Source: Candidatus Omnitrophota bacterium (GTDB taxonomy: Bacteria; Omnitrophota; Gorgyraeia; Zapsychrales; Zapsychraceae). From it: a DNA stretch of 64,000 nt. The stretch covers positions 14,714 through 78,713 of the forward strand of contig DATDQB010000002.1 in NCBI GenBank assembly GCA_035292445.1, given 5' to 3'. Under the pieces are notes generated by a model, which ran no database searches, was not told the origin of the DNA, and worked only from the letters and a program-made list of their open reading frames with translations. The translations under genes and the position numbers were made by a program. Positions 11,764 to 21,818 of this stretch are shown here, one piece after another. Positions within the stretch are counted from its first letter, which is position 1. Each line of letters starts with the position of its first letter.

Positions 11764-12249
11764 ATGAAGCGCTTGATCGTTATCACCCTGTTGGTCTTCG
11801 TTTTTTTTCTTCTGGAATTCTTTATTTTTAATCTCATCGGCGGGTGGTTAACGCCGAGTCTGCTGATCCTCCTTATCATTTTCTTTAACCTTTATCTGGG
11901 GATCCGCTACGGTTTATACACGGCCATTCTGGCGGGCGTTCTCAAGGACAGCTTCAGCTCGACATTCTTTGGGTTGAATATCGTCACTTTTATCGTGTGC
12001 GCGTACTTGACGACTGTCCTGAGAAAGTACATTTATTACCGCGGCTCACGGTTGTCGCGGCTGCTCCTTGTGTTTCTCATTTGTTTGGTCGATTTTATCT
12101 GCCGTCTGGTCCTTCACGCCATATTAGGCTCTTTGGATGCGGCGGGGGCTTTTAAATTCGTCCTTTTCTCGGGGGTCGTGACCACACTCCTTGCAACCAC
12201 GTATACGTTCCAGCAGCTCAAACGATGCGTCTCAAAATTATTCGTTTAG
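11764..12249 (+). CDS. mreD: rod-shape protein MreD
   Basis: 161 aa polytopic membrane protein immediately after mreC. Confidence 0.65.
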   Translation: MKRLIVITLLVFVFFLLEFFIFNLIGGWLTPSLLILLIIFFNLYLGIRYGLYTAILAGVLKDSFSSTFFGLNIVTFIVCAYLTTVLRKYIYYRGSRLSRLLLVFLICLVDFICRLVLHAILGSLDAAGAFKFVLFSGVVTTLLATTYTFQQLKRCVSKLFV

Positions 12250-13937
12250 TCATCATCGCTTTATTCATTGTCCTTGTCCTCGAGCTTTTTTATGTCCAGG
12301 TCATCCGGGGGCAGCATTATTATAACCTGAGCTTGAACAACCGCATCCGCATTGTCCCGCTCGAAGGCTGGCGCGGGCGCATCAAGGACCGTCATGAGAA
12401 GGTATTGGCCGATAGCAGGATCTCTTACAATATCCTTGTCAGCCCGCAGGATATCGTCAATATCCAGGAGCTGTTCCAATTTCTAAGCCAGGTGCTGGGG
12501 GTGGACCAGCCGACACTTATCGATGCCTACCGCCGTAAAAAATTTACGCCGTTCGCGCCGGTTGCGGTGGCTGAAAACGTTGACCGGCAAAAGGCCATAA
12601 AAATCGAGGAAAATAAATTTCGTTTTCCTAGCCTTATGATCCAGGAAAGCTTCAAGCGGTTCTATCCTTTGGAGCGAAGCGGGGCGCACGTTATCGGTTA
12701 TGTCGGCAAGTTGTCGCAAGAGCGGATGAAATCGTTTAAGGAATACGGGTATTCGCCACCGAGCATGGTCGGTTATTCGGGGGTCGAAGAATATTACGAT
12801 GACGTCCTCAAGGGCGGCAGCGGCGGTATCCAAATTGAGGTCAATAACCGCGGCCAGCAGGTGAGGTTGCTGAGCATCAAGGAGCCTACCAAGGGAGAGG
12901 ACATTACCTTAACCATTGATGGAGAGATCCAACGGATCGCCCAGGAGCTGATCGAAGGGCGGGTGGGGACGATCGTTGTCATGGACATGGCCAATGGCGA
13001 GGTCCTGGGGCTTGTCAGCTCCCCGGCCTTTGACCCGAATTATTTTGTGGATCATAAATTCAGTGAGGAATTGAAAGCGATCCTGCGCCATCCGCTTTCG
13101 CCTTTACTGAATCGGGCGATCAAGGGGCAATATCCGCCGGGCTCGGTCTTTAAAGTGATCATGGCTTTGGGCGGGTTGGACAGCAAGAAGATCACGCAAT
13201 ATACGACGTTCAACTGTCCTGGATATTTCCAATATGGCGGTAAGACCTTCGGCGATACCTGCCGGTACGGCGAGCAGAATCTTATCGAAGCCATTGCTCA
13301 TTCGTGCAATGTTTATTTTTATCATGTAGGGTTGCTGATAGGGGCCGATTTGATCCATAAAAATGCCCGCCTGCTCACCTTGGGAGACCTGACGGGAATT
13401 GACCTGCCTTATGAAGAAAAGGGTTTTATCCCCCATCGTCGGGTTTATTTGGCGGCCAGAAAAAGTTGGTACGCAGGTAACACGATCAATATGTCCATCG
13501 GGCAAGGGGATATCCTGACAACGCCGCTTCAGTTGGTTAAGATGATGGCGACCGTCGCTAACGAAGGCAAGGAAGTCCAGCCTCATGTGATCAAAAGAAT
13601 CGGTGAGAGTACCGTCAGCAGATATGATTTTATACGTGAGGTGAAATTGGACAGCAAAATTTTTGATATCGTCAAGAAGGGGCTACGGGCCGCGGTCACA
13701 GACCAGAACGGGACGGCGCGCGATTTGAATATGAACGAAATCTTTGTGGCTGGAAAAACAGGGACCGCCCAAAGCGCCCCGAACAAAGATCATCATGCCT
13801 GGTTCGTCGGGTACGCCCAGGGGGAATCGAAAAATATCGCTTTTTGCGTCTTTCTGGAATACGGCGGTTCCAGCCATAACGCGACGGCCCTGGCCAAGCA
13901 GTTGCTTAAGCTGATGCATGAGGAAAGTTTGTTGTGA
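12225..13937 (+). CDS. mrdA: penicillin-binding protein 2 (elongasome transpeptidase)
   Basis: 570 aa; N-terminal TM, transpeptidase motifs SVFK (SxxK), SCN (SxN), KTGTA (KTG); overlaps mreD and rodA. Confidence 0.85.
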   Translation: MRLKIIRLVIIALFIVLVLELFYVQVIRGQHYYNLSLNNRIRIVPLEGWRGRIKDRHEKVLADSRISYNILVSPQDIVNIQELFQFLSQVLGVDQPTLIDAYRRKKFTPFAPVAVAENVDRQKAIKIEENKFRFPSLMIQESFKRFYPLERSGAHVIGYVGKLSQERMKSFKEYGYSPPSMVGYSGVEEYYDDVLKGGSGGIQIEVNNRGQQVRLLSIKEPTKGEDITLTIDGEIQRIAQELIEGRVGTIVVMDMANGEVLGLVSSPAFDPNYFVDHKFSEELKAILRHPLSPLLNRAIKGQYPPGSVFKVIMALGGLDSKKITQYTTFNCPGYFQYGGKTFGDTCRYGEQNLIEAIAHSCNVYFYHVGLLIGADLIHKNARLLTLGDLTGIDLPYEEKGFIPHRRVYLAARKSWYAGNTINMSIGQGDILTTPLQLVKMMATVANEGKEVQPHVIKRIGESTVSRYDFIREVKLDSKIFDIVKKGLRAAVTDQNGTARDLNMNEIFVAGKTGTAQSAPNKDHHAWFVGYAQGESKNIAFCVFLEYGGSSHNATALAKQLLKLMHEESLL

Positions 13938-15040
13938 AAAAGGATCTAGACCGTAAAATTTGGACTTATACCGTTTGTATTATTGCCGTGGGGCTGGTGG
14001 CCCTTTACAGCGCTTCCTATGAAAACGTCCGCGTGCCGCACAGCATTTTTTATGATCAACTGATTTTCTCTTTGTTTGGTTTGGGGATCATGTATTTCAT
14101 CGGCAAACTGGATTACCGTAAATTCTACGACGCGGCCTATATTTTTTATATCATTAATATTATCTTGCTTGTTCTGGTGCTGGTCAGTGGTCGGCATGCC
14201 TTGGGCGCCAGGCGCTGGCTTGAGATAGGTGGTTTAAGCTTTCAGCCGTCGGAATTTGCAAAATTAGCTGTCATTTTGATGCTGGGGCGTTATTTCAGCG
14301 ACAGGCATCCGACCCTTTCGTTCGATTTCATGACAAAGGCCCAGGCATTTTTTTTGAACCTCTTTATGCCCTTCACCATGACGGCCATCTTAATGTTTTT
14401 TATCTTCAAGCAGCCGGATCTGGGCACGGCGTTTCTTCTTTTCGGGATGTTTTTGGTCATGCTTTTTGCCAGCGGCATCGAGTACCGGTATTTTTTTGGT
14501 TTCCTGGCCTTTTGCCTTGCGTTGGTTCCCTTTGGCTGGCATGTCCTTGAGCCTTATCAAAAGGATCGGTTGCTTGTTTTCTTGAATCCCAACATTGACC
14601 CTTTGGGCGCGGGTTATACGATCATTCAATCGAAGATTGCCATCGGTTCGGGGCAGATTTTCGGCAAAGGTTGGTTGTCGGGCACACAAAACCAGCTGAA
14701 TTTTCTTCCTGAGCGCCATACGGATTTTATTTTTTCGGTTTTGGGAGAAGAGTGGGGGTTGTTGGGCACGGTATTGCTGGTGTATCTTTATTTTCGGTTG
14801 ATTCAAAATATCCTCAAGATTGCCGAGCAGGTGAAGGACCGCTTCGGCACGCTGGTTGTGGTTGGCATCGTTGCCATTTTGACGCTCCAGGTCATTATTA
14901 ATATTGGGATGGTGATCGGCCTTTTCCCTGTTGTCGGTTTGACACTTCCCTTTGTCAGTTACGGGCGTTCGTCGTTTCTGGTTTTCATTATCATGATGGG
15001 GTTTTTGCTTAATTTAAGCAAGCGGCGGACGATTTTTTAA
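13934..15040 (+). CDS. rodA: SEDS glycosyltransferase RodA
   Basis: 368 aa, GTG start overlapping mrdA stop; about 10 TM segments; FtsW/RodA family C-terminal signature (GLLPVVGLTLPFVSYGRSS). Confidence 0.85.
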   Translation: MKKDLDRKIWTYTVCIIAVGLVALYSASYENVRVPHSIFYDQLIFSLFGLGIMYFIGKLDYRKFYDAAYIFYIINIILLVLVLVSGRHALGARRWLEIGGLSFQPSEFAKLAVILMLGRYFSDRHPTLSFDFMTKAQAFFLNLFMPFTMTAILMFFIFKQPDLGTAFLLFGMFLVMLFASGIEYRYFFGFLAFCLALVPFGWHVLEPYQKDRLLVFLNPNIDPLGAGYTIIQSKIAIGSGQIFGKGWLSGTQNQLNFLPERHTDFIFSVLGEEWGLLGTVLLVYLYFRLIQNILKIAEQVKDRFGTLVVVGIVAILTLQVIINIGMVIGLFPVVGLTLPFVSYGRSSFLVFIIMMGFLLNLSKRRTIF

Positions 15041-15074
15041 AGAAATTTAGTATTATAACTAATATAATTACTAT

Positions 15075-15103
15075 TTGAGTCCTTCTGCTAGCTATAGTAA
15101 AAT
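15075..15103 (+). promoter_or_regulatory. possible promoter TTGAGT-N17-TAAAAT ahead of the pilus ATPase operon
   Basis: AT-rich 100-nt gap after rodA. Confidence 0.3.
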
Positions 15104-15142
15104 TATATCTATTATTAACTGGCTAAAAAGCGGTTCTCTATC

Positions 15143-15595
15143 ATGAAACAGTTTAAAAAGACGACTAACAAGCAGTTGGGCGAGCTTCTTATTGAGCGCG
15201 GTTTTATCAACCATGAGCAGCTTCATATCGCCATTGAACAGCAAAAGAAACACGGCGGCCTCTTGGGGGAAATCTTGGTAGATTTAAAATTCGCAACCGA
15301 GAAAGATATTGCCCAGGCCTTGACCGCCCAGTACGGATTTCCGTACCTGCCCTTATCCAATTATGAAATCGATCAAGAAGTCATTGAGTCCATCCCTGAA
15401 AATATCTGCCGGAAATTTTGTTTAATTCCCATCGACCGCATCGGCAAAAGTTTGACCCTGGCGATGGCCAACCCTTTGAATATTCAGGCCGCCGAAGACG
15501 TTGAGCTCATTACCGGCTGCAGCGTTCAGGTGTTTGTCAGCACCTCCACCGAAGTTAAACAGACGATCGACAAGTATTACAAAAAGTCTTCCTAA
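15143..15595 (+). CDS. standalone MshEN (c-di-GMP-binding) + T2SSE_N domain protein, no ATPase domain
   Basis: 150 aa; two tandem 24-residue MshEN-type motifs QLGELLIERGFINHEQLHIAIEQQ and LLGEILVDLKFATEKDIAQALTAQ (pattern [RK]LGxxLxxxGxIxxxQLxxALxxQ); then GspE-N1-like LIPIDRIGKSLTLAMANPLN...ITG...V....I..YY. Confidence 0.7.
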   Translation: MKQFKKTTNKQLGELLIERGFINHEQLHIAIEQQKKHGGLLGEILVDLKFATEKDIAQALTAQYGFPYLPLSNYEIDQEVIESIPENICRKFCLIPIDRIGKSLTLAMANPLNIQAAEDVELITGCSVQVFVSTSTEVKQTIDKYYKKSS

Positions 15596-17349
15596 TGGCG
15601 TCTTTAAAGGAACGAATAAAACAAATCCTCCTTCGCGACAAGCTCATTGAGCCGGCCCAGCTTAATAAAGCCCTGGAAGAGCAGAAGGAAAGCGGCGAAG
15701 AACTCAGTAAAATCCTTGTTAATTTGAAACTCATCGAAGAGGACACGTTAAGTCAAATCCTCAGCGAAAGTTTAGGCCTACCGCAGATTGATATTGCCCG
15801 CCTTCAGATCGACCCAAGCGTCGTTAAACTTATCCCTAAAGAATTGGCAGAGAAATATAAGCTTATCGCAGTTTCCTTGATGGGAGAAAACCTTTCTCTC
15901 GCCATGGCCGATCCACTGAACATTTTTGCCATTGATAATGTGAAGGCCTTGACGGGCTATACCATTAATCCCATTATCGGCAGGGCCAAAGATATTGCGA
16001 CGGCGATCCAGAAATATTATTACGAGGCTCAGGAGGAAGTCGAGGAAACATCCGCCAAATTCGATGAGATTATCAAAGATATTCAGTTGGAAGAGAAAAT
16101 GGAATTGGTCAAAGAGGTTGACGCGGATGTCGGAGGGCTTTCCATTGAGGAATTAACGCAAGAAGCGCCTATTATCCGTCTGTGTGACACGATCATTCAG
16201 CAGGCTGTCGTGGCCAAAGCCAGCGACATTTTTATTGAACCCATGGATAAAACGGTGCGCGTGCGCTACCGCATTGACGGCGTCATCCAGGAGATCGATC
16301 GTATGGCGAAGGTGATTCATCTGCCGTTGGTTTCGCGCATCAAAGTCATATCGACTTTGGACATATCCGAACACCGCCTGCCCCAGGACGGGCGGTTTAA
16401 AACGATCATTTCCGGGAATCGCGAAGTCGATTTCCGTGTCAACGTCCTTCCAACGGCGATGGGGGAAAAGGTTGTTTTGAGAGTTTTGGATAAAGACACC
16501 TCCGTTTTAAATATTGAGAGGCTGGGCTTTGATGCAGACTCGCTCAAGCGCTTGGAGGAATGTTATAAAAAGCCCCATGGAATGATCTTGGCTTGCGGGC
16601 CGACGGGATCGGGAAAGACAACGACGTTGTACTCCATTTTAAAATCGTTGGACTCACCAAAGAAGAATATCGTTACGGTGGAAGACCCCGTAGAATACCA
16701 AATGAAAGGGATTAATCAGGTCAATGTTAAAGCTGCTACGGGGCTGACCTTTGCCACCAGCTTGCGTTCTATTCTGCGCCAGGACCCGGATATTATCATG
16801 ATTGGGGAGGTCAGAGATTCCGAAACATTGGATATTGCCGTTAAAGCGGCTTTGACGGGGCATTTGGTCCTAAGCTCATTGCATACGACGACTGCTGCCG
16901 GTTCCATTGTCCGTATGGAAAACATGGGGATCGCTCCTTTTTTGATCTGTTCCAGCGTTTTGGTCATCATCGCCCAAAGGCTCATACGAAAGGTTTGTCC
17001 TCATTGCAAGGAGTCCTATTCTTTGTCCGCTATGGTGTCGGAGAAAGTCGGGTTAACGAGATTATATCCGAGCAAAGCCAAGTTTGAGTTGTTTCGCGGC
17101 GTGGGTTGCAAGAAATGTTTCAAGATGGGCTATGCGGGGCGGGTGGTGATCGCGGAGGTGTTGATTTTTTCTCCCAAACTTAAAGAGATCATCCTTAACC
17201 GGGCCGGAGAAATCAAACTTAAAGAAGCGGCCCGCCGGGAAGGGATGAAAACCATGCGGGAAGACGGGCTGATGAAGGCGGTGGAAGGCATCACCACTCT
17301 CGAAGAAGTCTTGCGCGTTACAGCACCGGATGAAGCGCTTAAGAAATAA
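15595..17349 (+). CDS. pilB: type IV pilus/T2SS assembly ATPase, PilB/GspE/MshE family (paralog 1)
   Basis: 584 aa; N-terminal T2SSE_N domain with degenerate MshEN motifs; Walker A GPTGSGKTTT; tetracysteine CPHC...CKKC; start overlaps upstream stop (TAATG). Confidence 0.85.
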   Translation: MASLKERIKQILLRDKLIEPAQLNKALEEQKESGEELSKILVNLKLIEEDTLSQILSESLGLPQIDIARLQIDPSVVKLIPKELAEKYKLIAVSLMGENLSLAMADPLNIFAIDNVKALTGYTINPIIGRAKDIATAIQKYYYEAQEEVEETSAKFDEIIKDIQLEEKMELVKEVDADVGGLSIEELTQEAPIIRLCDTIIQQAVVAKASDIFIEPMDKTVRVRYRIDGVIQEIDRMAKVIHLPLVSRIKVISTLDISEHRLPQDGRFKTIISGNREVDFRVNVLPTAMGEKVVLRVLDKDTSVLNIERLGFDADSLKRLEECYKKPHGMILACGPTGSGKTTTLYSILKSLDSPKKNIVTVEDPVEYQMKGINQVNVKAATGLTFATSLRSILRQDPDIIMIGEVRDSETLDIAVKAALTGHLVLSSLHTTTAAGSIVRMENMGIAPFLICSSVLVIIAQRLIRKVCPHCKESYSLSAMVSEKVGLTRLYPSKAKFELFRGVGCKKCFKMGYAGRVVIAEVLIFSPKLKEIILNRAGEIKLKEAARREGMKTMREDGLMKAVEGITTLEEVLRVTAPDEALKK

Positions 17350-17354
17350 TCGTT

Positions 17355-19064
17355 ATGGCCAGCACGCTCAAAGATAAAATCTTAAAGACATTGATCGAGA
17401 CCCAAGGGCTCAAAAAGCACGATATTGATGCGGCCATTGATCTGCAAAAAAGAAAAGGCATCAGCCTCGATAAGGCGCTCATGGAAAAGGGCCTTATCAA
17501 GGAAAAAGATTATTTGATCCTTCTGGTCCGCGAGCTTAATATCCCGTTTATTAATTTAAGCAAGTACAATATTGACCCCGCCCTGAAAGAAATCTTCCCG
17601 GAAAGAATCGCGCGCCAGTACAAAGTCATTCCCCTTTCGGCGTTGACCGACACTTTGACGGTCGCCATGAGCGACCCGTTGAACATTTTTATCATTGATG
17701 ACTTGAAGAGTATCACGGGCAAACAGATCGATGTGGTCATCAGCACCAATTCGGAAGTCGAGAAGGCGCTGGATAATTATTACGGTAAGGAATCGACGGA
17801 GTCGGTAACGGATATCAGCAAAGATATCCATGTGGAAGATTTTGAGATCGTGACGGAAGAGGTGGCCCGGCAGGATGTCGATACGGTGGTGGATGAAAGC
17901 GAAAAGGCGCCGATCATCCGGATGGTGAATTTGATCATTCAGGATGCGCTGCGCAAAAAAGCCTCCGACATCCATATGGAGCCGATGGAAGACGGGGTGC
18001 GGGTGCGTTTTCGTATCGACGGGATTTTGAGGGATGTTTTAACGGTTCCTAAGGCTAACCAGAATGCGGTGACTGTCCGCATCAAGATCATGTCGCGTTT
18101 GGACATCACCGTCAACCAGGTGCCGCAGGATGGGCGTTTTAAGTTGAAGTTGGGAAATAAAGAAGTCGATTTTCGTGTCTCCATCCTGCCGACCAGCCAT
18201 GGGCAGAAAATCGTCATGCGGGTTTTGGACAAGGTCAATTTGACCGTCGGCCTTGACGGGCTGGGCTTCAATCCCAAGGCGCTTGAGATCATGAAAGAAG
18301 GCATCAAAAAGCCGTTCGGCATGATCATTGTCACAGGCCCGACAGGAAGCGGGAAATCAACGACCCTTTATTCCATCGTCAATGCTTTGAATTCGGTCGA
18401 TAAGAATATCATCACTATAGAGGATCCGGTTGAATATCTGATCGAAGGGTTGACGCAGATCCAGGCCCGCCCGGAGATCGGCCTTACTTTTGCCGAGGGG
18501 CTAAGGGCCGTTTTGCGCCAAAGCCCCGACATCGTGATGGTCGGCGAGATCCGCGATAACGAAACCGCCGATATCGCCATTAAAGCGTCGTTAACGGGGC
18601 AGCTGGTTTTATCGACGCTTCACACCAACGATGCCTCCGGCGCTCTGACCAGGTTGGTTGATATGGACGTAGAGCCGTTTTTGGTGGCCTCCAGCATTGT
18701 CTTGGTGACCGCCCAACGGCTTTGCCGAAAGATTTGTCCGAGATGTAAAAAGGAAGAAGATGTCCCCAAGAAGGTTCTGGACCAGATGGAGTACAAATTG
18801 AAAGCGGGGACGAAATTTTATCACGGTAAAGGTTGCCCCGTGTGCAATGATACTGGATACCAAGGCCGCATTGCCGTTACCGAAATACTCGAAATCAACG
18901 ATACGGTGCGGGAAATGCTTTTGGGAGGGAAAACATCCGATGATATTAAGGAATACGCCCGTAAGGAACTCCAAATGGCAACGCTTTGGGAAGACGCGAT
19001 GAATAAATGCCTTAACGGTATCACCAGTTTGGAAGAGGTTTTACGCGTTACCAGTGAAGATTAA
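17355..19064 (+). CDS. type IV pilus/T2SS assembly ATPase, PilB/GspE/MshE family (paralog 2)
   Basis: 569 aa; N-terminal T2SSE_N; Walker A GPTGSGKSTT; tetracysteine CPRC...CPVC; too long and N-domain-bearing to be PilT. Confidence 0.85.
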   Translation: MASTLKDKILKTLIETQGLKKHDIDAAIDLQKRKGISLDKALMEKGLIKEKDYLILLVRELNIPFINLSKYNIDPALKEIFPERIARQYKVIPLSALTDTLTVAMSDPLNIFIIDDLKSITGKQIDVVISTNSEVEKALDNYYGKESTESVTDISKDIHVEDFEIVTEEVARQDVDTVVDESEKAPIIRMVNLIIQDALRKKASDIHMEPMEDGVRVRFRIDGILRDVLTVPKANQNAVTVRIKIMSRLDITVNQVPQDGRFKLKLGNKEVDFRVSILPTSHGQKIVMRVLDKVNLTVGLDGLGFNPKALEIMKEGIKKPFGMIIVTGPTGSGKSTTLYSIVNALNSVDKNIITIEDPVEYLIEGLTQIQARPEIGLTFAEGLRAVLRQSPDIVMVGEIRDNETADIAIKASLTGQLVLSTLHTNDASGALTRLVDMDVEPFLVASSIVLVTAQRLCRKICPRCKKEEDVPKKVLDQMEYKLKAGTKFYHGKGCPVCNDTGYQGRIAVTEILEINDTVREMLLGGKTSDDIKEYARKELQMATLWEDAMNKCLNGITSLEEVLRVTSED

Positions 19065-19142: not shown

Positions 19143-19598
19143 TTGATGATTCAAATAGAGGGCCAAGCGCCGCAGCGACATCTTTTGGGGGAGATATTGA
19201 TTCAACGCCGGCTCATCACCCCGGGGCAATTGCAAAGGGCGCTGGAGGTTCAGAAGAACGAGAAACGGTATTTGGGCGAAATCCTGATCGATCTGGGGAT
19301 CGTGGAGGAGCGGGATATTCTGGTCGCTTTAGTCGTCCAATGCAATCTTCCCTATATAGCAGTCCACAACTACTCCATTGATCAAAATGTCATCAGTCTT
19401 ATCCCGGTCGAGATGGCCAGGCGATATCATGTGATGCCCTTGGACCGCGTCGGTGACATCTTAAGCGTCGTTATGGCCGATCCATTGAATGAAGAAATCA
19501 AAACAGAGCTCATTAAAGCGACCCAGTGCCAGATCGCGCCTTTTATCGCGACCAAAGCAGAAATAGAAGAAGCCATCAGCCGATGGTATAAAAGCTAA
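19143..19598 (+). CDS. standalone MshEN (c-di-GMP-binding) + T2SSE_N domain protein, no ATPase domain
   Basis: 151 aa; near-canonical tandem MshEN motifs LLGEILIQRRLITPGQLQRALEVQ and YLGEILIDLGIVEERDILVALVVQ; then T2SSE_N-like ...DILSVVMADPLNEE. Confidence 0.7.
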   Translation: MMIQIEGQAPQRHLLGEILIQRRLITPGQLQRALEVQKNEKRYLGEILIDLGIVEERDILVALVVQCNLPYIAVHNYSIDQNVISLIPVEMARRYHVMPLDRVGDILSVVMADPLNEEIKTELIKATQCQIAPFIATKAEIEEAISRWYKS

Positions 19599-19604
19599 AC
19601 AACC

Positions 19605-20810
19605 ATGCCAACATTTAAATATACAGCCAAAAATAAAGACTCCCGCACCGTCGCCGGAAAGATTGTCGCCGAAAACCAGCAGGCGGTTATCGAAGAACTG
19701 CGAAAGCGCAATTTAGTCATTCTCAATCTTAATGAAACCAAAGAAGTCACGGCCAAGAAAACCGCTTTCCAGAGCAAAAAAGTCAAAGGGGAAGAGATTG
19801 TCATCTTTTCCCGCCAATTGGCCACGATGGTCGAAGCCGGCATCCCTATCCTGCAAGGGGTTAACGCGTTGAAAGACCAGGTCAATCATCCTGCCTTCAA
19901 GAAAGTTCTGGGGCAGGTGGAAAGCGATATTCAGCACGGCAGCAGCCTTTCAGTCGCGTTTTCCAAACACCCCCAGGTTTTTAGCACGTTGTTTGTCAAT
20001 ATGGTCAAAGTCGGGGAAACCGGAGGCGTTTTGTCCCAAATCTTGGACCGGATCGCCACGTATTTGGAGAAAACGCTTCGTTTGCAAAGAAAAGTCAAGG
20101 CGGCCCTTATTTATCCGGCGGTCGTTGTTTCCATGGCGATCATTATTACGGTTTTTCTTCTTGTTAAGGTTGTTCCGACCTTCTCCGGGATTTATGAATC
20201 GTTCAATGCGGATTTGCCGGCGATGACGGTAGTGCTGATTACCATAAGTAAAATTCTACGGCAGAATATTCTTTGGCTCGCGGGTGCGTTGATCATAGCG
20301 GGGTTTTTTTTAAGGCGGTGGTATAAAACAGATAAAGGAGCGCTTGTCATTGACCGAATTTTTTTAAGGTTGCCTATTTTCGGGGAACTTTTAAGGAAAG
20401 TCGCCATCAGCCGGTTCAGCCGCACGCTGGCCACGCTGGTGCAAAGCGGCGTTCCCATTCTTGAATCGTTGGATATTGTCGAGAAAACCATTGGCAACAA
20501 AGTCCTTGAACTTGTTGTCCGGGATGTCAAGAGCACGGTCCGGGAAGGAGAAAGCATCGCCACTCCTTTGGAGAAAAGCAACGTTTTCCCGCCCATGGTC
20601 ACGCGCATGATCGCGGTGGGTGAGAAAACCGGCCAAATGGAGAAAATGCTTTTAAAAATCTCCGAATTTTATGATGACCAAGTGGATGCGGCCGTTGAGG
20701 GTTTGACCAGTGTTATCGAGCCTTTGATCATCGGGTTCTTAGGGATTGTCATCGGATTCATCGTGGTTGCGTTATTCTTGCCTATCATCAATATCACGCG
20801 TTTAATATAA
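19605..20810 (+). CDS. pilC: type IV pilus platform protein PilC/GspF family
   Basis: 401 aa; two repeated GspF domains each followed by TM segments; begins MPTFKYTAKN... typical of PilC. Confidence 0.85.
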   Translation: MPTFKYTAKNKDSRTVAGKIVAENQQAVIEELRKRNLVILNLNETKEVTAKKTAFQSKKVKGEEIVIFSRQLATMVEAGIPILQGVNALKDQVNHPAFKKVLGQVESDIQHGSSLSVAFSKHPQVFSTLFVNMVKVGETGGVLSQILDRIATYLEKTLRLQRKVKAALIYPAVVVSMAIIITVFLLVKVVPTFSGIYESFNADLPAMTVVLITISKILRQNILWLAGALIIAGFFLRRWYKTDKGALVIDRIFLRLPIFGELLRKVAISRFSRTLATLVQSGVPILESLDIVEKTIGNKVLELVVRDVKSTVREGESIATPLEKSNVFPPMVTRMIAVGEKTGQMEKMLLKISEFYDDQVDAAVEGLTSVIEPLIIGFLGIVIGFIVVALFLPIINITRLI

Positions 20811-20819
20811 TTTTCGTTT

Positions 20820-21818
20820 ATGAGCAAATCTCTTCATAATACGTTTTGGTTGAAAGGATGCGTCCTTCTTTGTTTTATGCTTTGTCCTGCCTTAAAGGTC
20901 GAAGCGCAAGTGCACAGCCGAAACTCACCCGTTCTATCCTTGGAATACAGCTTAAAGAGTCTATACGACAGCGCCAATGAAGTGGCGAAGAAAAACGAAT
21001 GGCTTCGCCAGGAAATCGACCGGATGAGCCAGGAAGTTACGTTTATAACGGAAGAAATGCGCTCTTTGGAAACCAACCAAACCAAGGGTATGGTTGGCCA
21101 AGCGCTGGGGGATGAGGGTTTGATGAAAGATATTCCCTGGGAAGAGAAACGCATCCAGATGATGTATGAGGATTTTATTGAATTGGATGAGGAGGAAAAG
21201 TATTTAAAGGATCGTTTTGAAGGGAAAAAAAATGACCAACAAGAGATCGAAGAGGCTGTTTATAAGCTGGAAAAAGAAGTTGCCCAGCTGGCCAATCAAA
21301 GGTTACAGGCCGAAGAGGCGCTGGGCCGTCGGGGTGACGCTGGGGAATTTGACCGGTTAAAGGACGCTTATGCCCGAGCGGCCAGGCATCTTAAGATCAC
21401 GAGAGATAAATATCAACGGTTAGAAAATCAGCACGGCCAGCCGCTGAAGGTTTTTAGCAAGATAAAGGACAGGAATATTGAGCTTAAGGGGCGGCAGGCT
21501 TTTTTGAGCAAGCAGATCCATTTGATTAACGAGCGGCAAATAAGCTTGGGGGAGGAAATCGACAACATCAAAGCAACAGATAAGGAGAGATTAAGCCTCC
21601 TTCAAAAGGACGTTGGGGATTTATCCAGGCAAAGAGAAGATTTATTAAGGGTCTTAAAACGGGCGAATGTCAAATTGGGCAAAGATTTCAGCATACCGGA
21701 TTATGATGCCCAGATCGGCCAGGTTAAGGGAAATATTGAAACGATCAAAGAGGAAAACCGCCTCCTTAAAGAAGAGCTGATTTCTTTGGAAAGCAAGATG
21801 TTGGAAGCCCCCCAGTAG
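20820..21818 (+). CDS. hypothetical secreted coiled-coil protein embedded in pilus locus
   Basis: 332 aa; N-terminal signal peptide (CVLLCFMLCPALKVEA|Q); remainder E/K/L/Q-rich predicted coiled coil. Confidence 0.5.
   Translation: MSKSLHNTFWLKGCVLLCFMLCPALKVEAQVHSRNSPVLSLEYSLKSLYDSANEVAKKNEWLRQEIDRMSQEVTFITEEMRSLETNQTKGMVGQALGDEGLMKDIPWEEKRIQMMYEDFIELDEEEKYLKDRFEGKKNDQQEIEEAVYKLEKEVAQLANQRLQAEEALGRRGDAGEFDRLKDAYARAARHLKITRDKYQRLENQHGQPLKVFSKIKDRNIELKGRQAFLSKQIHLINERQISLGEEIDNIKATDKERLSLLQKDVGDLSRQREDLLRVLKRANVKLGKDFSIPDYDAQIGQVKGNIETIKEENRLLKEELISLESKMLEAPQ

Follow-up and report, generated by a model that had tools for sequence, protein, structure and literature searches.

Two types of protein receptor for cyclic dimeric guanosine monophosphate (c-di-GMP) are more widespread than all others, and MshEN is one of them. 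It has been studied as part of a fusion with its output: in the usual arrangement, an MshEN domain fused N-terminally to a PilB/MshE ATPase binds c-di-GMP and turns pilus assembly on. In the PilB-PilZ-FimX system of Xanthomonas citri, the N-domain of PilB is a degenerate MshEN-like domain that is not known to sense c-di-GMP, and separate proteins bring the signal. Pili are also thought to be important in the phylum Omnitrophota, which is uncultivated and made up of very small cells. Here, we analyzed a 64-kb stretch of a Candidatus Omnitrophota contig (64,000 nucleotides [nt], hereafter the window) whose type IV pilus cluster encodes two PilB-like ATPases (A1 and A2) flanked by two free-standing MshEN proteins, small MshEN protein 1 (s1) and small MshEN protein 2 (s2). 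Because the sensing residues are lost from the ATPases but retained in the two free-standing copies, a separate subunit probably reads the signal, and we propose that s2 most likely serves the type IVa pilus machine of the Omnitrophota as a c-di-GMP receptor subunit acting in trans.

With Vibrio cholerae MshE (Protein Data Bank [PDB] entry 5HTL) and the MshEN-T2SSE ATPases, s2 shares family, fold, motifs, spacer, 10 of 15 ligand contacts and a setting in a type IV pilus cluster, but it is not fused to an ATPase, it has Leu and Tyr in place of the arginines at motif position 1, and the fused MshEN domains of the neighboring ATPases are degenerate. At position 1 of both motifs, the GSPII-B domain of Thermus thermophilus PilF likewise has residues other than arginine (K167 and L196; 8PDK, and 8PE0 for the K167L variant), and the model of s2 aligns to this domain in Foldseek with a template modeling (TM) score of about 0.73 to 0.79. 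GSPII-B is, however, one of three tandem domains fused to an ATPase, whereas s2 has an aromatic residue at position 1 of motif II. By analogy, the closest functional counterpart of the s2 arrangement would be the Xanthomonas PilB-PilZ-FimX system (7LKM, 7LKN, and 7LKO), which is alike in outline (TM of about 0.69 to 0.72 between the PilB N-domain and s2), although the receptor there is the EAL domain of FimX bridged by the PilZ adaptor, while the candidate receptor here is an MshEN paralogue and not a member of that system. Pseudomonas aeruginosa PA3740 is a swarming-linked MshEN protein that binds c-di-GMP with a dissociation constant (KD) of about 30 nM and, like s2, has no listed T2SSE ATPase (PMC5013675). 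Unlike s2, PA3740 carries an extra, highly diverged T2SSE_N1 domain and is listed for beta- and gamma-proteobacteria; neither a pilus-operon context nor degenerate partner ATPases are described for it in the cited literature (PMC5013675). We found no description of a stand-alone MshEN protein or of an Omnitrophota pilus cluster in the literature, where the matches to "stand-alone" concerned other domains, and the plain single-MshEN architecture is absent from supplementary table 4 of PMC5013675.

The open reading frame (ORF) of s2 runs from TTG 19143 to the TAA at 19596-19598 on the plus strand, and residues are numbered here from TTG 19143. The start is more likely to be ATG 19146, because the resulting product of 150 amino acids (aa) matches a database protein at 100% identity (P0001, i.e., VI749_00940 of a Candidatus Omnitrophota metagenome-assembled genome, annotated as "hypothetical protein"). 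A preceding sequence-only reading had assigned s2 to the MshEN family, and on this the profile, sequence, and fold searches all agree, none of them pointing to an unrelated family. The Pfam MshEN family (PF05157) is the sole Pfam match of s2 (75 bits, E=4.8e-21, residues 68-150, for a cut-off of 23.1), no PilZ, EAL, or GGDEF domain being present, and the NCBIfam model NF053729 ("cyclic di-GMP-binding domain, MshE-related"; "c-di-GMP_motif") matches residues 15-64 (58.2 bits, E=5e-16, for a cut-off of 38). The nearest PDB entries by sequence are the GSPII domains of Thermus PilF, Geobacter PilB, and V. cholerae MshE, the last with E=3.6e-17 (5HTL). Matches of this quality go well beyond what chance would give. 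The AlphaFold2 model obtained from an alignment of 32 homologues (mean predicted local distance difference test score of 89.4) shows the MshEN fold, with a four-helix N-subdomain followed by an alpha/beta C-subdomain in which a short helix (residues 80-83) precedes three strands flanked by three main helices. Its best PDB match in Foldseek is c-di-GMP-bound MshE (5HTL; TM of 0.83/0.89, root mean square deviation of 1.8 A, 138 columns), followed by PilF GSPII-B and GSPII-A, the Xanthomonas PilB N-domain, and XpsE-N.

Altogether, s2 consists of a single, complete MshEN domain with nothing added to it. The T2SSE_N-like segment previously described as following the protein does exist, but it is no separate follower, corresponding instead to residues 68-150 inside s2, the C-subdomain of the same MshEN domain. 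The stand-alone nature of s2 was borne out: it has no match to the T2SSE ATPase family (PF00437) and no Walker-bearing ATPase domain, the protein ends at residue 150-151, three in-frame stops follow A2, and the 120 relatives listed among 318 matches to s2 in a collection of 5.8 billion proteins are 136 to 175 aa long and carry PF05157 only. The named organisms among these 120 relatives are Omnitrophota. Several s2 orthologues have been named "type IV pilus assembly protein PilB" by the Joint Genome Institute (JGI), a label that is a misnomer.

MshEN is defined by two 24-residue motifs with a 5-residue linker between them (PMC5013675). Both peptides quoted in the sequence-only reading are present in s2 (Table 1), 5 residues apart in agreement with this definition, and the alignment of s2 with MshE is gapless with an offset of 5. 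Among the 15 contact residues taken from the MshE complex (PMC5013675), 10 are identical in s2 (MshE L10, G11, L25, L29, Q32, L39, G40, L58, Q61, and D108, corresponding to s2 L15, G16, L30, L34, Q37, L44, G45, L63, Q66, and D113, respectively), three are conservative replacements (D12E, D41E, and L54I, at s2 E17, E46, and I59), and two are changed (R9L and R38Y, at s2 L14 and Y43). The glycine at position 3 of each motif, whose backbone amide binds guanine O6/N7 in MshE (G11 and G40; PMC5013675), is present as Gly16 and Gly45, and the leucine clusters (positions 2, 17, and 21) and Gln24 are found in both motifs, the lone change being that of L54 to Ile59. In MshE, the G11L mutant does not bind, G40I binds 72-fold more weakly, and Q32A and Q61A bind 9- to 12-fold more weakly (PMC5013675, supplementary table 1); all four of these mutation-sensitive residues are retained in s2.

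We propose a mechanism in which the four-helix bundle of s2 would take one c-di-GMP through the backbone amides of Gly16/Glu17 and Gly45/Glu46 together with Gln37 and Gln66, the Leu15/Ile59/Leu63 and Leu44/Leu30/Leu34 clusters also holding the ligand and Leu14 and Tyr43 stacking on the guanines in replacement of the consensus arginines. Liganded s2 would then dock via its T2SSE_N1-like C-subdomain on ATPase 2, PilC, or PilM, and docked s2 would gate pilus assembly. We infer c-di-GMP binding by s2 and likewise its affinity, its partner, and the direction of the regulation.

The comparison between the small proteins and the ATPases was extended to related loci, obtained by scanning one genome per GTDB species, which yielded 77 loci whose ORFs were labeled using the window proteins. 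When 78 s2, 55 s1, 56 A1 N-domain (A1N), and 61 A2 N-domain (A2N) sequences were aligned to one profile, the position 3 glycine of motifs I and II was found in 100% and 100% of s2 and in 96% and 100% of s1, the 96% being due to alignment gaps, and motif II Gln24 in 100% of both. In A1, the same glycines amount to 0% and 5% (replaced by Lys or Gln in motif I and by Ser in motif II) and motif II Gln24 to 0% (Gly, Ala, or Ser); in A2, they amount to 0% and 0% (Ile, Leu, or Val, and Asp, Val, or Glu, respectively) and motif II Gln24 to 1% (Glu in 95%). The window conforms to this pattern, with a degenerate MshEN domain in A1 (Lys and Ser at position 3 of motifs I and II, Ser at motif II position 24) and a strongly degenerate one in A2 (Leu and Asp at position 3, Glu instead of motif II Gln24). 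Motif II retains its hydrophobic core positions in all four groups, and motif I does so in three of them; the motif I of A2 aligns poorly, with about half of the sequences gapped. Since these core positions are kept, the ATPase N-domains would still fold as MshEN with their ligand-contact residues lost, and by analogy with MshE they probably no longer bind c-di-GMP. Both ATPases look catalytically competent because, as read from their translations, Walker A, the Asp box, Walker B, the His box, and the tetracysteine are all intact. In the s2 orthologues, motif I Gln24 is present in 98%, and the residue that opens motif II (position 1) is aromatic, either Phe or Tyr, in 78%.

The arrangement is conserved well beyond the window. 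The gene order rodA, s1, A1, A2, s2, pilC, pilin gene, and pilMNOPQ is kept in the 77 loci wherever the contig is long enough, with a single exception (L076:7511-8450) in which the s1 and s2 ORFs overlap, no ATPase or pilC lies between or after them, and a 358-aa ORF comes next. The median gap is -1 nt from s1 to A1 (overlapping genes), 5.5 nt from A1 to A2, 75 nt from A2 to s2 (78 nt in the window and more than 500 nt in seven loci), and 11 nt from s2 to pilC (at most 10 nt in 36 of 75 loci). The location of s2 between ATPase 2 and pilC, as given in the sequence-only reading, follows from the ORF coordinates (Table 1). A 32-sequence alignment of s2 has 17 invariant and 29 nearly invariant columns. 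Two cysteines of s2 are nearly invariant among orthologues, at residues 67 (19341-19343; QCNLPY, after motif II) and 129 (19527-19529; T-x-C-x-IAPF), the second being common to s1. By title, almost all loci are Omnitrophota or Omnitrophica, many are "uncultured Planctomycetales" or similar, and one is Candidatus Elulimicrobium (NCBI: Patescibacteria group); the last (L072, DYOU01000025.1) carries the full s1-A1-A2-s2-pilC module. Either the Elulimicrobium and Planctomycetales titles are mislabels of Omnitrophota bins, or the module is distributed more widely.

In a profile search of 1.84 billion cluster representatives, 35,556 proteins matched at E<=1e-3 and 526 at E<=1e-30, and the top 150 matches include both single-domain proteins of about 150 aa and proteins of two to seven MshEN repeats, whether the ATPase is present or not. 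Stand-alone MshEN proteins are therefore no rarity among known protein sequences. Several matches (P0123, P0125, P0127, P0135, and others), 1,260 to 1,345 aa in length, have MshEN repeated six or seven times, more than the four at which the 2016 architecture table ends. Another match of 454 aa (P0229) fuses an s1-like MshEN domain with intact LG motifs to a putative AAA+ domain that, read from the sequence, resembles DnaA/Hda (GSSGIGKTHLL...), a fusion that would link c-di-GMP to replication control.

The two small proteins had been regarded as paralogous yet diverged, through old duplication rather than assembly error, and both views are upheld. In the window, s1 and s2 share 41% identity over 136 residues (E=5e-39), the locations of the two genes recur in dozens of Omnitrophota genomes that were assembled independently, and each small protein forms its own clade (92 to 94% bootstrap, 92% for s2) in neighbor-joining trees, where each of the four groups is a clade at 92 to 97%. 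The window s2 is 34 to 35% identical to the ATPase N-domains; across groups, the mean identities are 37.5% between s1 and s2, 27 to 31% between the small proteins and the ATPase N-domains, and 32 to 34% between A1N and A2N. The deeper grouping (s1,s2),(A1N,A2N) is weakly supported by the trees, A1N+A2N reaching 48% and s1+s2 together with one s1-like outlier 38%. The alignment check that had been suggested for the duplication/fission history, here extended to trees, speaks for an old duplication and against fission from the adjacent ATPase, the groupings of s2 with A2N and of s1 with A1N both obtaining 0% of bootstraps. A readthrough or fusion of A2 and s2, which share a reading frame, is ruled out by the stops between them. 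From these trees, the duplication predates the sampled Omnitrophota radiation, and the small proteins are not recent fragments of their neighbors. An (MshEN)2-T2SSE architecture is known from Clostridia (PMC5013675); one idea is that s1 and A1, whose genes overlap by 1 nt, may be a split version of it. A1 and A2 are themselves related at E=5e-148, and their tandem pair is kept in nearly all related loci.

In six Omnitrophota species, genes for cyclase-type proteins are inserted between A2 and s2. Four of these species (L013, L016, L041, and L051) have two such genes, the first encoding a 298-aa REC-GGDEF response-regulator diguanylate cyclase (PF00990 at 142 to 149 bits) in which the GGEEF motif is intact and an RxxD I-site is found. 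The second encodes a protein of about 1,400 aa whose N-terminal GGDEF domain has an AGDEF motif and an RxxD and is followed by an AAA_16/STAND NTPase domain and by HEAT repeats at the C-terminus. The ORF of the large gene ends 1 to 2 nt (L041 and L051), 13 nt (L013), or about 200 nt (L016) before the s2 ORF; in L056 and L065, the large gene occurs without the REC-GGDEF gene and ends 2 nt before s2. These insertions link s2 to c-di-GMP synthesis through guilt by association, but specifically so, the insertion point lying exactly before the candidate receptor gene. The large protein has an unusual architecture in carrying a cyclase-type domain on a STAND NTPase. HEAT-repeat proteins are also encoded directly upstream of s2, as the C-termini of these large proteins and as a 723-aa HEAT protein at the same insertion place in L021 (1942-4113), and Myxococcus xanthus FrgA fuses MshEN to HEAT repeats (MshEN - unknown - HEAT; PMC5013675). 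FrgA shares this MshEN/HEAT association with some Omnitrophota s2 loci, but it is a fusion protein of another overall architecture encoded outside a pilB cluster, the link being one of domain association alone; in Rosetta-stone fashion, HEAT repeats may be a partner of MshEN.

Several observations weigh against s2 as a trans-acting receptor. The strict-consensus arginine at position 1 is absent from both motifs, where s2 has Leu14 and Tyr43, and the turn glycine at position 10 of motif I is Arg in s2 and Lys, Asn, or Gly in most orthologues. The motifs had been described as near-consensus and as the closest matches in the window; the former passes over these three positions, and the latter holds by consensus count (s2 18/22, s1 16/22, A1 15/22, and A2 10/22) but not by NF053729, with which s1 scores above s2 (65.4 versus 58.2 bits). 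Moreover, A1 still exceeds the cut-off of that model (47.1 bits, A2 falling below it with 19.2), and its presumed loss of binding is suggested by residue-level likeness to the MshE G11L and G40I mutants. No convincing candidate for a GGDEF, EAL, or HD-GYP gene was found by motif search in the 64-kb window, and an Rfam scan of the window detected no c-di-GMP riboswitch, only two tRNAs. Finally, Tyr43 lies outside the (R/K/L)LG pattern to which the MshEN consensus has been widened (PMC11731258) and outside the variants that we found to have been tested in MshEN domains. As to the arginines, PilF GSPII-B natively has Lys and Leu at position 1 and binds with a KD of 6 nM (2 nM for its K167L variant), while the introduction of Arg at either position 1 reduces affinity (PMC11731258). 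Because this high-affinity domain also lacks both arginines, their absence is, by analogy, not disqualifying for the membership of s2 in MshEN.

A different view is that s2 is a nucleotide-independent structural adaptor whose C-subdomain tethers the ATPases to PilM/PilC, as GspE N1 binds GspL, the motif residues serving only for folding. Its C-subdomain weakly matches the EpsE/GspE N1 domain crystallized with GspL (2BH1 and 4PHT; TMt of about 0.7 over 65 residues, E of about 0.2), many motif positions are core hydrophobics that stabilize the bundle (PMC5013675), and s2 is tightly spaced with pilC. However, A1N and A2N keep core positions 6, 7, and 12 as well as motif II positions 17 and 21 (A1 also motif I positions 17 and 21, where A2 is largely gapped or degenerate) and yet have lost Gly3 and motif II Gln24, which are thus unneeded for the fold, yet are conserved at 96 to 100% in s1 and s2. 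The adaptor would also leave the GGDEF gene insertions beside s2 unexplained, and we consider it unlikely. Alternatively, s2 could be a c-di-GMP-dependent inhibitor or decoy that mimics an ATPase N-domain and competes with ATPase 1 or 2 for docking on the platform, so that the messenger picks one motor or none, which differs from the trans-acting receptor in the sign and target of regulation alone. The fold of s2 is that of the ATPase N-domains at the identity given above, and two PilB paralogues with intact catalytic motifs lie between two sensor paralogues, no PilT-type retraction ATPase having been found anywhere in the 64-kb window. Against this improbable alternative, the known MshEN domains of MshE and PilB2 activate pilus assembly rather than inhibit it (PMC5013675, PMC9765702).

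The naming of several orthologues as PilB by JGI and the reading frame shared by s2 and A2 could also suggest that s2 is a functionless leftover of a disrupted pilB, or an assembly or frameshift artifact. The comparative data refute this reading, to which we give almost no credence: three in-frame stops separate the two genes, 77 genomes assembled independently of one another have, at this position, an s2 gene of about 150 aa that has a start of its own, its 32-sequence alignment retains the many invariant and nearly invariant columns described above, and the s2 clade stands apart from both ATPase N-domains (92% bootstrap, with 0% for s2+A2N).

Coming back to s2 as a c-di-GMP receptor acting in trans, a further and more tentative extension is that s1 (translationally coupled to ATPase 1) and its paralogue s2 (coupled to pilC) might be messenger-dependent clutches that choose which PilB paralogue engages the platform; sensing would then be split from the motors, and the signal would be made locally in some lineages by operon-encoded diguanylate cyclases.

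Table 1. Features of s2, its neighbors in the window, and the genes inserted before s2 in related loci. Spans are window positions unless a locus is named; residues are those of s2.
Feature	Span	Strand	Remarks
Small MshEN protein 1 (s1)	15143..15595	+	150-aa paralogue; stop overlaps ATPase 1 start by 1 nt
PilB-like ATPase 1 (A1)	15595..17349	+	584 aa; PF00437 462 bits plus PF05157
PilB-like ATPase 2 (A2)	17355..19064	+	569 aa; PF00437 444 bits; NF053729 19.2 bits
Small MshEN protein 2 (s2)	19146..19598	+	150 aa plus stop; ORF, database match, PF05157, AlphaFold2, Foldseek
Predicted c-di-GMP motif I LLGEILIQRRLITPGQLQRALEVQ	19182..19253	+	residues 14-37; gapless alignment with MshE residues 9-32
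Spacer KNEKR joining motifs I and II	19254..19268	+	5 residues; read from sequence
Predicted c-di-GMP motif II YLGEILIDLGIVEERDILVALVVQ	19269..19340	+	residues 43-66; aligned with MshE residues 38-61
MshEN C-subdomain, T2SSE_N1-like alpha/beta	19344..19592	+	residues 68-150; Pfam stretch; includes Asp113
pilC, platform protein with two T2SSF domains	19605..20810	+	PF00482 225 bits, 2 stretches; starts 6 nt after s2 stop
Inserted genes, L016	L016:2698-7742		
Inserted genes, L041	L041:2810-7969		
Inserted genes, L051	L051:2776-7971		
Inserted genes, L013	L013:1135-6140		
Inserted gene, L056	L056:3835-7968		
Inserted gene, L065	L065:3808-7968		

In the window, mreD, PBP2, and rodA lie upstream of s1, and a coiled-coil gene, the pilin gene, and pilMNOPQ lie downstream of pilC; the 64-kb window contains only four MshEN-bearing ORFs and two T2SSE ATPases. 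No terminator-like site was found on the plus strand from s1 through the end of the gene after pilC. The pilus cluster stands directly downstream of the elongation genes mreD, PBP2, and rodA on the same strand (11764-15595) in about 50 species, an unusual and conserved linkage between elongasome and pilus genes with a median gap of 128 nt from rodA to s1. Between pilC and the pilin gene, positions 20820-21818 encode a Glu/Lys-rich, coiled-coil-looking protein of 332 aa with a hydrophobic N-terminus, which has no Pfam family above threshold and was found by phmmer in four related loci only (L011, L024, L025, and L033).

Our analysis brings to light, phylum-wide, a free-standing MshEN protein beside two ATPases without ligand residues, that is, a natural "split" switch. 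How a fused MshEN domain controls its ATPase is not explained in the cited literature, and s2 would be a clean system for the study of MshEN signal transmission because a free-standing domain must act via a protein-protein contact that can be mapped. The existing annotations can be corrected as well, the exact match being a "hypothetical protein" and several orthologues being mislabeled "PilB." If s1 and s2 do act as clutches, one pilus machine would switch between modes, e.g., attachment or host contact versus motility or uptake. The s2 protein would also be the first concrete starting point for studying how a second messenger controls pili in the Omnitrophota.

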